Shown here piece by piece: positions 39,775 to 62,620 of a stretch of 64,000 nucleotides of DNA. A program made the translations under genes and the position numbers. The first letter of the stretch is position 1, and each line of letters opens with the position of its first letter. The stretch is taken from positions 22,276 through 86,275 of IMG/VR virus record IMGVR_UViG_3300032226_000905. One strand, 5' to 3'. A model generated the notes under the pieces. That model worked only from the letters and a program-made list of their open reading frames with translations. It had not been told where the DNA came from and searched no databases. The DNA comes from a virus. Lineage: Duplodnaviria; Caudoviricetes.

Positions 39775-40335
39775 TTATTTGATTCCTATGATCATAAATC
39801 TTCGGAAACTCCAGTTAGGATAGGTAAACAGCTTTTCTCCGGTAAAAAAAGTTTCAGATAGATTAAATTCTTTAACAAACTCGTCTAAATTGCTATGGCA
39901 TTCTGTGTGATCTTCGTGAGGCATATCGTTGCTCTGCAATACTACCAAGCAGTCTTTGGGTATGTTTTCAAACCATTTTCGAGACTCGATGTGTTCTACA
40001 CTGGTATTGATCACAGTGTCAAAATCATCGATAGTGTAATGAAAGTCGTTGGCATCGCTAGTTATACTCTTGAACTGCCAGTCCTGCCATTCCCAAGAGT
40101 TGTTGATCTTATCAGCGATTTTTTCAACTTCGGGATCAATATCTAGGCTACGAAAATTTTTGATTTTCATTCGGTTACGAATTCGCAGTATGAAGTTTGT
40201 TAGACCATACCAACCACCTAGGCAAAGTATCTGTCTAGGTTGAGCCAGCAGATTGAGTTCTACGACTTTTTCCAGCGACTCAGCTAACCATACCTTGCTG
40301 AGAACTTGACCGCTGGAAAAAGCATCGAAGTTCAT
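39775..40335 (-). CDS. Class I SAM-dependent methyltransferase-like protein
   Basis: LGGWYG motif I, SLDIDP, DAN, INTSVEH. Confidence 0.7.
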   Translation of the reverse strand: MNFDAFSSGQVLSKVWLAESLEKVVELNLLAQPRQILCLGGWYGLTNFILRIRNRMKIKNFRSLDIDPEVEKIADKINNSWEWQDWQFKSITSDANDFHYTIDDFDTVINTSVEHIESRKWFENIPKDCLVVLQSNDMPHEDHTECHSNLDEFVKEFNLSETFFTGEKLFTYPNWSFRRFMIIGIK

Positions 40336-40336
40336 A

Positions 40337-40531
40337 TTACTTGGCCTTGGCTTCTTTGCGGGCGTTCTTTTCTGCTGTGATTTCGTTGCGGCGTGCTTTG
40401 ATCAGTTTGGCAGCTTCTTGCAGAGCTTTACGAGCACGAGTACCTGCGGCTGAATTACCACCTGTGAATTTAGCATCTTCTGCTAGAAATGTTTCAAATT
40501 GAGTTTTTAGTTGTTCTACTGTGTTTGACAT
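40337..40531 (-). CDS. Histone H1-like Hc1-family small basic protein
   Basis: GNSAAGTRARKAL matches the Hc1 core GNKAA..RVR. Confidence 0.7.
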   Translation of the reverse strand: MSNTVEQLKTQFETFLAEDAKFTGGNSAAGTRARKALQEAAKLIKARRNEITAEKNARKEAKAK

Positions 40532-40574
40532 TTTGTTTTCCTTATAAAATGTGTCTAATACTTATCGTAGTAAA

Positions 40575-40685
40575 TGGTGTGGCCGGTAGGTTTCGAACCT
40601 ACAAAGGCTACGAACTATGTCAGCGCCCCGTCCCCTTTCCGAACTATGGGCTCGGCGGGAGCTTTGCCAATTTGCTCACGGCCAC
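40575..40685 (-). ncRNA. 111-nt tRNA-like RNA with an expanded anticodon region
   Basis: Acceptor stem GUGGCCG/CGGCCAC + ACCA; D-arm AGC-AAAUUGGCAAA-GCU; T-arm GUAGG-UUCGAAA-CCUAC; ~55 nt between D and T arms. Confidence 0.7.
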
Positions 40686-40690
40686 AGCTT

Positions 40691-40719
40691 ATTATATACT
40701 AAAAAAATACATAATGCAA
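40691..40719 (-). promoter_or_regulatory. Sigma70-type promoter of the tRNA-like RNA
   Basis: TTGCAT-17nt-TATAAT ending 5 nt before G1. Confidence 0.65.
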
Positions 40720-40792: not shown

Positions 40793-41812
40793 ATGAAACT
40801 AAAACTTTTACCATTACTATGTCTTTTTGGAATTTCTACGGCCTACTCTCAGGTTTCAGTATATGGTGTTATCGATACCAGTATCCAATCTTATAATAAC
40901 GGAACTACTAGTTTTACTAGAGCAGCTGACAGTCAATACAGCACGAGTCGTTTGGGATTTCGAGGAACAGAAGACCTCGGAGGCGGACTAAGTGCCTTTT
41001 TTCAAGTGGAAGGTCAATTAAATCCTGCTACAGGTTCTATGGGATCTACTACAGTAACTACCAATGAAATTTTTAATAGAGACGCATACGTTGGTATCAA
41101 ATCTCCCGTGGGATCTATTAGAATGGGACGAACTGATGTGGCTTTGGTAGGAGAGATGGATTTATTTGTATCACAATCTGGAAACTTTGGTATGCATCCA
41201 ACTAACGGTACCAGCGTTGAATTGGGTACCGATCAAAAAAACGTGGTCAGATATGACAGCCCAGTTTATCGAGGATTTCAACTTATAGTAGGTCATGCTA
41301 CTAATAATGTAGGAGCAACCACGGATGCCGTAGCGGATCAAAATGGAGTCGCTCTAAGATATGAAGTAGGCAAACTAAAGGCCGGAGTAGGTCATCAGAA
41401 AAATCAAGGTGTAGGTGTGGCAGCACGTGAGACCACGACTGCAGGATTAGCCTATGATTTTTCTATTTTGTCAGTTGGTACCGCATATGCAAGGGGTGAT
41501 AATTCGACCACTACTGATGTGACTAGTTCGACATGGGTAACCTCAGTAAGGGTACCGTTGCAGCAACAGTATGCTGCACATGTCGTATATGCGCACAGCT
41601 CAAATGGTTCCAGCACTACTGATAACAAAGGCAACGGTGTTACATTAGCAGTTACTAAAAATTTAAGTAAACGCACTGCATTGTATGGCGCCTATACCAA
41701 AGTCTATAATCAGACTAATTCATCAATGGCTATGTTCAACGCTACTTCTGCTCCGGCAACTGCCGGCTTGAATACCAGTTCATTAGGACTAGGAATTAGC
41801 CATACATTCTAA
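40793..41812 (+). CDS. Gram-negative trimeric porin (betaproteobacterial type)
   Basis: Signal peptide, VSVYGVID, SRLGFRGTEDLGGGLSAFFQVE, LSKRTALYG, C-terminal LGISHTF. Confidence 0.93.
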   Translation: MKLKLLPLLCLFGISTAYSQVSVYGVIDTSIQSYNNGTTSFTRAADSQYSTSRLGFRGTEDLGGGLSAFFQVEGQLNPATGSMGSTTVTTNEIFNRDAYVGIKSPVGSIRMGRTDVALVGEMDLFVSQSGNFGMHPTNGTSVELGTDQKNVVRYDSPVYRGFQLIVGHATNNVGATTDAVADQNGVALRYEVGKLKAGVGHQKNQGVGVAARETTTAGLAYDFSILSVGTAYARGDNSTTTDVTSSTWVTSVRVPLQQQYAAHVVYAHSSNGSSTTDNKGNGVTLAVTKNLSKRTALYGAYTKVYNQTNSSMAMFNATSAPATAGLNTSSLGLGISHTF

Positions 41813-62545: not shown

Positions 62546-62620
62546 TGGTTGCGGGGGACAGAATCGAACTGTCGATCTCCAGGTTATGAGCCTGGCGGGT
62601 TACCTCTTCCCCACCCCGCG
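62546..62620 (-). tRNA. Initiator tRNA-fMet (CAU)
   Basis: CGCGGGG...CCCCGCA-ACCA; C1:A72 mismatch; G11-C24; loop CUCAUAA; T-loop UUCGAUU. Confidence 0.93.

Follow-up and report, generated by a model that had tools for sequence, protein, structure and literature searches.

A conserved RNA family on a leucine tRNA frame, probably non-decoding, heads transcription units in uncultured freshwater jumbo myophages

A short phage locus with the elbow and encoded CCA end of a tRNA but with a rebuilt anticodon domain raises the question of what kind of RNA it specifies. It lies in a 64,000-nt stretch of DNA (the window, meaning the whole stretch that was analysed) from an 86-kb IMG/VR virus record judged 23% complete. 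The window encodes baseplate, tail and other phage families (PHROGs), and among cultured phages its closest relatives are jumbo myophages, PA5oct for example. We found that the RNA gene is real and conserved, absent from catalogues (Rfam) and overlooked by tRNA finders. The original prediction, made from the sequence, described a 7-bp acceptor stem, A73, an encoded CCA, a leucine-like D loop, a T arm and a CCGAG-CCCAUAG-UUCGG hairpin, and all of these are present on the minus strand. The parts of the gene, with RNA positions counted from G1, are as follows.

40575..40685, minus strand: tRNA-Leu-framed non-decoding RNA, whole gene, 111 nt; G1 is 40685 and the A of CCA is 40575
40679..40685, minus strand: 5' strand of the acceptor stem (RNA 1-7), 7 bp with RNA 101-107; 100% paired in 43 sequences, five of the seven pairs compensatory
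40660..40676, minus strand: D arm (RNA 10-26), a 3-bp stem and a leucine-type 11-nt loop, AAAUUGGCAAA, with G18G19
40632..40659, minus strand: 'anticodon' arm in its extended form (RNA 27-54), with three C-G pairs, then an internal loop (G/AAA) and a 5-bp stem under a 7-nt loop
40604..40629, minus strand: variable-arm hairpin (RNA 57-82), a 5-bp base, an internal loop, a 3-4-bp distal stem and an NUA triloop
40586..40602, minus strand: T arm (RNA 84-100), GUAGG-UUCGAAA-CCUAC, near-invariant in sequence, with one covarying pair in distant members
40575..40585, minus strand: 3' strand of the acceptor stem, A73 and the encoded CCA

Read on the minus strand, U8 and G9 come after the 5' strand of the acceptor stem. 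In the D arm, A14, A15, G18, G19 and A21 are invariant in an alignment of 43 distinct copies, and the D loop of the window RNA differs from that of phage T4 tRNA-Leu at a single base. The hairpin of the extended arm presents the loop CCCAUAG (40644-40650, minus strand), with C at position 33. About 57 nt separate the D and T arms and contain two copies of the 9-mer CAUAGUUCG (RNA 38-46 and 67-75). Both copies, one of them inside the hairpin, had been pointed out in the original prediction and are indeed there; the duplication, however, is found in just one of the 96 distinct versions of the RNA described below and is hence a coincidence, and the second copy belongs to the covarying variable-arm hairpin, not to a second anticodon-like element. 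The 9-mer was accordingly rejected as a repeat or insertion scar. A free-energy fold of the single sequence recovers the helices listed above, with a weak thermodynamic z-score of -1.85.

ARAGORN made no tRNA or tmRNA call at 40575-40685, so that the proposed check with a tRNA finder did not return the locus as a tRNA; its only call in the window is a tRNA-Met at 62546-62620. Rfam gave no match at the RNA locus, either at gathering thresholds or at E values up to 10. Among the 96 family members, ARAGORN calls just six, and these inconsistently. Set against a canonical tRNA of the class II tRNA-Leu type, the RNA has the acceptor stem, discriminator and CCA as well as the G18G19/UUCRANN elbow, but it lacks a 5-bp anticodon stem joined directly to position 26, U33 and a leucine anticodon, and it goes unrecognised by tRNA gene finders and by Rfam RF00005. 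We also considered tmRNA, YrlA and other catalogued tRNA-like RNAs and rejected them (no tmRNA call by ARAGORN, no Rfam match, and a G-C pair at 3-70 in place of G3-U70).

An exact search with the 3' part of the RNA returned two relatives. Using the downstream gene for an Hc1 histone-like protein as an anchor gave 501 IMG/VR loci, and D-arm and T-arm patterns added more. A covariance model made from 43 distinct copies (R1) scores the window RNA at 109.7 bits and finds one copy per locus, at 50-118 bits. The covariance search of phage genomes that the original prediction had called for was productive, and all routes together gave 96 distinct versions among 191 instances on phage contigs of IMG/VR. 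The 5' end of the RNA is carried by over 120 additional metagenome contigs; contigs that begin at G1 were sought among them, and the matches are ordinary DNA contigs only. Among 80 Hc1-anchored loci, a set unbiased with respect to the RNA, 65 carry it, and the distinct versions from this anchoring retain A73 and U48 (37 of 37), the D-loop pattern (37 of 37) and CCA (34 of 37). Host or prophage copies were sought in 185,579 GTDB species genomes, where the conserved 3' block of the RNA has no exact match, and matches in cultured phages are limited to T-arm-sized stretches of tRNA-Tyr genes. The window RNA is thus a member of a large, conserved and uncatalogued family of uncultured freshwater jumbo myophages, and because it is absent from Rfam and overlooked by tRNA finders, this family goes unannotated.

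The fold itself is under selection. The scaffold helices are 95.9% paired over 43 sequences, with 10 pairs that show changes on both sides; none of 500 shuffles paired as well, and slid controls drop to 26-50% paired. In the subtype of the window RNA (25 sequences), pairing holds in 99.9% of cells, and compensatory change is seen in 13 of the 31 pairs. Within this subtype, the variable arm has two basal and three distal covarying pairs, and its shape is retained in the remaining subtypes. In the inner 'anticodon' stem, four out of five pairs covary, showing as many as six pair types. The D stem is reduced in many relatives to just two clear Watson-Crick pairs. Random decay of the middle region in homologs would have marked the gene as a pseudogene; the middle region instead covaries, which refutes decay and rules out the pseudogene.

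The arm in the anticodon position exists in several forms. That of the window is found in 25 of the 96 versions, where 13 different 5-bp stems carry a nearly fixed loop (CCCAUAG in 14, CUCAUAG in seven, CCUAUAG in three and CCCACAG in one). In 33 versions its place is taken by a longer helix capped with a GNRA tetraloop, and in the other 38 by hairpins of other kinds, many of them short stumps closed by a stable tetraloop. Since the arm differs in this way between lineages, the family cannot depend on an anticodon and does not decode. Each arm module appears from its sequence conservation to be under selection in its own right. The original prediction had held that the RNA is not a decoding tRNA, and this view is strengthened by the GNRA caps and stumps of sister lineages, by the lack of an ARAGORN or Rfam call, and by the arm of the window RNA, which is too long by three pairs and an internal loop and has C33. 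Its suggestion of an intron-containing tRNA fared differently. When run in intron mode, ARAGORN gave near-identical relatives anticodons (Pro, His, Tyr, Ala, Leu, Ser and others) and intron positions that contradict one another; no intron reading holds across them, the insert itself covaries as helices, and the suggestion was rejected. We also asked whether the 7-nt loop has an antisense target, but the window shows no enrichment of the complementary sequence (8 occurrences against 5.5 expected), which does not lie at gene starts either.

Several lines point to a leucine tRNA as the origin of the frame. In phage T4, R1 scores tRNA-Leu best, at 45 bits, compared with 25 bits for tRNA-Ser and 20.8 bits for rnaC, and five of the six closest canonical tRNAs checked in related phages are tRNA-Leu. 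E. coli leucyl-tRNA synthetase (LeuRS) needs A73, A15-U48, G18G19, A20a and the D/T tertiary pairs, and tRNA-Leu variants without the anticodon and variable arms stay active with it (review PMC9976931). None of the identity elements published for E. coli LeuRS is missing or variable in the RNA family; the LeuRS rules of the host may differ. Because the E. coli identity set is kept in full, charging of the RNA by LeuRS is plausible on sequence grounds, and we would put the chance that it is leucylated, or at least bound by LeuRS, at about even. The variable arm is conserved though dispensable for E. coli LeuRS, which points to some other partner. Strong purifying selection acts on the frame gripped by tRNA-handling enzymes, namely the acceptor/T minihelix, the D/T elbow, A73, A15-U48, G18G19, A20a and the variable arm.

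Some other loci carry tRNAs or tRNA-like sequences with features of the family. L174 (4572-4664, minus strand, 93 nt) is a class II RNA with a canonical 5-bp stem and the loop CUCAUAA, adjoins a tRNA-Leu(UAA) and has a terminator after it; L137 (3322-3422, minus strand, 101 nt) is a class II RNA with a stem of about 8 bp and lies within an array of 18 tRNAs. Both combine a D loop of leucine type and a long variable arm with A73 and CAU, and ARAGORN reports each of them as tRNA-Met. They resemble decoding relatives of the anticodon-less family, and LeuRS, MetRS or both might charge them. Two further loci (L210, 13454-13530; L201, 8779-8855) encode a 77-nt tRNA-Leu(UAG) with a short, class I-like variable loop and a T arm in common with the look-alike RNA. 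A short variable loop is unusual in a bacterial-type tRNA-Leu. Finally, L211 (7878-7963, minus strand) carries an 86-nt tRNA-like sequence with a T arm and ACCA of the same type, which ARAGORN does not call and R1 scores at 42.6 bits.

The surroundings of the gene show how the RNA would be made. The relevant features are these.

40714..40719, minus strand: -35-like hexamer TTGCAT, with a 17-nt spacer to the -10 hexamer
40691..40696, minus strand: -10 hexamer TATAAT, with five bases between the hexamer and G1
40532..40574, minus strand: 43-nt spacer from CCA to the Hc1 gene, with a weak hairpin, AUAAGUA (40559-40565) and a Shine-Dalgarno sequence, and no terminator
40337..40531, minus strand: Hc1 histone-like gene, 64 aa (Pfam PF07432, E 1.5e-14), first gene of the operon

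The RNA had been predicted to have its own promoter with a start near G1, and TTGCAT, 17 nt and TATAAT do place the start at or beside G1. Across the family, 76 of the 96 versions have a -10 hexamer, matching at five or more of six positions, whose end lies exactly six bases before G1, in most cases together with a -35 hexamer that can be recognised at 17 nt; in 35 versions the -35 hexamer at this spacer matches TTGACA at five or six positions. The consensus promoter scan of the window did not list the RNA promoter because the -35 hexamer there matches at just three of six positions. The fixed distance between the -10 hexamer and G1 argues that the 5' end is made by initiation and not by RNase P. 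On the other side of the RNA, an intrinsic terminator within 130 nt downstream was absent in 94 of the 96 versions, and the sole case with one is the canonical-looking cousin L174.

The Hc1 gene follows the RNA in 67 of the 96 distinct versions (about 70%). Ten versions have a normal tRNA (Arg-CCU, Ser-GCU or Thr-UGU) after the RNA, for the most part at a distance of 3-11 nt and otherwise within about 90 nt, which argues for tRNA-like maturation of the RNA. The remaining versions precede unrelated genes. At the Hc1-linked loci the spacer measures 41-45 nt, and 46 of its 54 distinct forms have AUAAG at one fixed place, with its start 10 nt past CCA, inside a weak hairpin that covaries. This element may mark where the transcript is processed, or it may be a hairpin that protects the 5' end of the Hc1 mRNA; we rejected AUAAGUA as a general phage promoter, given that ATAAGTA is depleted in the window (6 occurrences against 14.8 expected).

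The Hc1 H1-like protein is encoded at more than 500 IMG/VR loci and heads a conserved early operon in this phage group. In the window, the minus-strand Hc1 operon also holds two genes of unknown function, a 2OG oxygenase and ThyX. The first gene after Hc1 (39775-40335, minus strand) encodes a 186-aa protein without a Pfam or PHROG match, whose structural model (pLDDT 91.7) has a generic Rossmann SAM-methyltransferase fold (top matches TehB and ChlM, TM about 0.6). We considered it as a tRNA-specific enzyme and rejected the idea, as the fold shows no tRNA-specific signal. In relatives, a paralogue of this protein is encoded upstream of the porin gene. For the 157-aa protein also encoded after Hc1, no assignment was obtained. 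Divergent from the RNA promoter lies a porin gene (Porin_4, E 1.4e-40; 40793-41812, plus strand) with a gene for a TctC-like binding protein 3' of it, and a porin homologue is found upstream in about 49 of the 96 RNA contexts. A different layout is seen at L101 (4296-4483, minus strand), where a consensus TTGACA-17-TATAAT promoter precedes the look-alike RNA, followed after 7 nt by a tRNA-Arg(CCU) and by a gene with a CX5R phosphatase motif; L115, L142, L173 and L193 have the same layout.

Taken as a whole, these observations are best explained by a working gene for a non-decoding small RNA on a class II tRNA-Leu frame that acts in trans as a tRNA mimic or as a scaffold, a composite reading to which we assign a probability of roughly 0.6. 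Host RNA polymerase would start at or beside G1 from a sigma-70-type promoter, a start that makes RNase P unnecessary for the 5' end. The RNA would form the first 111 nt of an early transcript that runs on into the Hc1 operon, and would probably be cut free right after the encoded CCA, as a tRNA is. LeuRS, which ignores the anticodon arm, would thus leucylate or bind it. In place of the anticodon arm, each lineage has its own module, which in the window is a lengthened stalk showing a conserved 7-nt CAU-type loop. As such an RNA cannot reach the decoding centre, it would most likely serve as a trans-acting tRNA mimic or a natural tRNA scaffold.

The same transcript organisation could be read in another way, with the fold as a cis-acting 5' leader, that is, only a processing or stabilising module (tRNA punctuation) that leaves a protected 5' end on the Hc1 mRNA and releases the RNA as a by-product. 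The RNA is always first in its transcription unit with the start at G1, a downstream terminator is nearly always lacking, and the hairpin with AUAAGUA stands at a fixed distance after CCA, all as a leader would have it. A simple hairpin would suffice for this purpose, however, and the leader reading does not account for selection on A73, CCA, the leucine-specific A15-U48, A20a and the variable arm, or for the sequence conservation of the arm modules; the same RNA also heads tRNA arrays and unrelated genes. We therefore regard a purely cis-acting role as unlikely.

A role in counter-defence is also conceivable, in which an abundant early RNA would soak up a host effector directed at tRNAs while leaving translation undisturbed. 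Such an effector would recognise the acceptor end, the elbow, the long variable arm or, in the subtype of the window, the CAU anticodon stem-loop. The promoters of the family are strong and often consensus, and the swapping of arms between lineages is as expected of an arms race. Phages are known to use their own tRNAs against retron and PARIS-type effectors that cleave tRNAs (PMC11555353). There are also toxins, MenT and toxSAS, whose target is the acceptor end of tRNAs (PMC10435456 and 10.1101/2024.07.05.602228). A decoy for an anticodon nuclease should nevertheless retain a true anticodon loop, which most lineages lack, and no partner gene co-occurs with the RNA within 6 kb on either side. 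As a specific account of the family, the decoy is distinctly improbable.

A more specific form of the trans-acting reading, speculative and at long odds, takes the leucine frame as a natural tRNA scaffold, which would have been retained because LeuRS charges it regardless of the anticodon arm, which LeuRS charging and EF-Tu binding would stabilise and on which phages would display interchangeable RNA modules. In the lineage of the window, the CAU stem-loop mimic could then titrate a factor that inspects the anticodon loops of Met, fMet or Ile2 tRNAs, with a VapC-type tRNase, TilS or MetRS as candidates. If this were true, phages would have in this RNA an RNA-based factor for anti-defence or host takeover, and the same idea would explain the stable RNAs of phages T4 and T5.

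The original prediction had also proposed an aminoacyl donor for the adjacent GNAT, ATP-grasp and PP-loop enzymes. As a dedicated carrier, the leucyl-RNA would serve as substrate for a phage transferase, such as one of GNAT fold, acting on DNA, protein or the envelope outside translation. The precedent is Mom of phage Mu, a GNAT-fold enzyme that moves glycine from Gly-tRNA onto DNA (PMC13219725). GNAT-like, ATP-grasp and PP-loop genes are present in the window, DNA-modification genes were noted in the genome, and a non-decoding carrier would avoid competition with the ribosome. The proposed link did not hold up in the relatives, where the upstream island is not conserved beside the RNA, unlike the downstream operon. 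Pfam places the GNAT-like proteins in none of the Fem, Aat and Mom families, and the PP-loop proteins are weakly QueC-like. We rejected the GNAT-like proteins as aminoacyl-tRNA transferases, with a single sub-threshold match to Acetyltransf_1 for one of them and no useful relative among PDB sequences for either. Nor did synteny supply a partner, as no ORF family within 6 kb either side of the RNA is present in all contexts. The Mom precedent keeps the carrier idea alive in principle, and nothing here ties Mom-type chemistry to the RNA; we judge such a carrier very unlikely.

That the RNA is an odd but decoding CAU tRNA (Met, Ile2 or mis-sense Leu) with a long anticodon stem, or a tRNA with an intron, is scarcely credible: its 5-bp stem and 7-nt loop do offer CAU and A37, the loop is constant over the 13 different stems, some relatives have U33, and canonical-looking class II CAU cousins (L174 and L137) sit in tRNA arrays, but the three added pairs and internal loop exceed the arm of any decoding tRNA, C33 is present here, neither ARAGORN nor Rfam calls it, the intron-mode anticodons of close relatives contradict one another, a group I intron needs far more than 111 nt, and GNRA caps occupy the same place in sister lineages.

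The design is widespread: a leucine tRNA frame with a swapped decoding arm, under strong selection, heads putative early transcripts in hundreds of abundant freshwater jumbo phages. Its possible functions include a decoy for tRNA enzymes, an amino-acid carrier in the style of Mom and Gly-tRNA, and a scaffold for RNA modules. The tight conservation of LeuRS identity offers a concrete entry point to the function of such RNAs.

With class II tRNA-Leu, such as that of T4 (NC_000866, 72370-72456), the window RNA shares the 7-bp acceptor stem, A73-CCA, the 3-bp D stem with its 11-nt loop, A15-U48, G18G19, the T arm, along with the long variable arm. It differs in having no leucine anticodon, in its longer arm with C33 and CAU, in going undetected by tRNA finders and in having its own promoter at G1. 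Plant-virus 3' tRNA-like structures (TLS-Val, TLS-His and TLS-Tyr) also combine a tRNA-like frame that is recognised and aminoacylated with a non-decoding remainder (PMC10870377 and PMC11791061). These viral structures stand at the 3' end of RNA genomes and have a pseudoknotted acceptor, whereas the window RNA has a genuine cloverleaf and is encoded where the transcript of a DNA phage begins, at its 5' end. Engineered tRNA scaffolds likewise have a tRNA-shaped frame recognised by tRNA enzymes while the rest is non-decoding, a likeness that is one of analogy only.

RNA1 and RNA2 of phage T5 and rnaC and rnaD of phage T4 (species 1 and 2) are annotated in database records as 'tRNA-like stable RNA with unknown functions', and to our knowledge no function has been found for them in the roughly fifty years since they became known. 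Like the window family, they are phage-encoded, have a tRNA frame without an anticodon and are co-transcribed with genes or tRNAs. In T5 RNA1, which we read directly, a leucine-type D arm and a T arm flank a large insert. The R1 scores are weak, at 20.8 bits for T4 rnaC, 18.0 for T5 RNA2 and 17.9 for T5 RNA1, and are lower than what ordinary tRNAs reach in those records. The T4 and T5 RNAs measure 119-144 nt and lie inside tRNA clusters, whereas the window RNA measures 111 nt and heads the Hc1 operon, and the annotated T5 RNA1 is without the CCA end that the window RNA encodes. Class II tRNA-Leu is thus the closest canonical family to the window RNA, and the stable RNAs of T4 and T5 are the closest described non-decoding RNAs.
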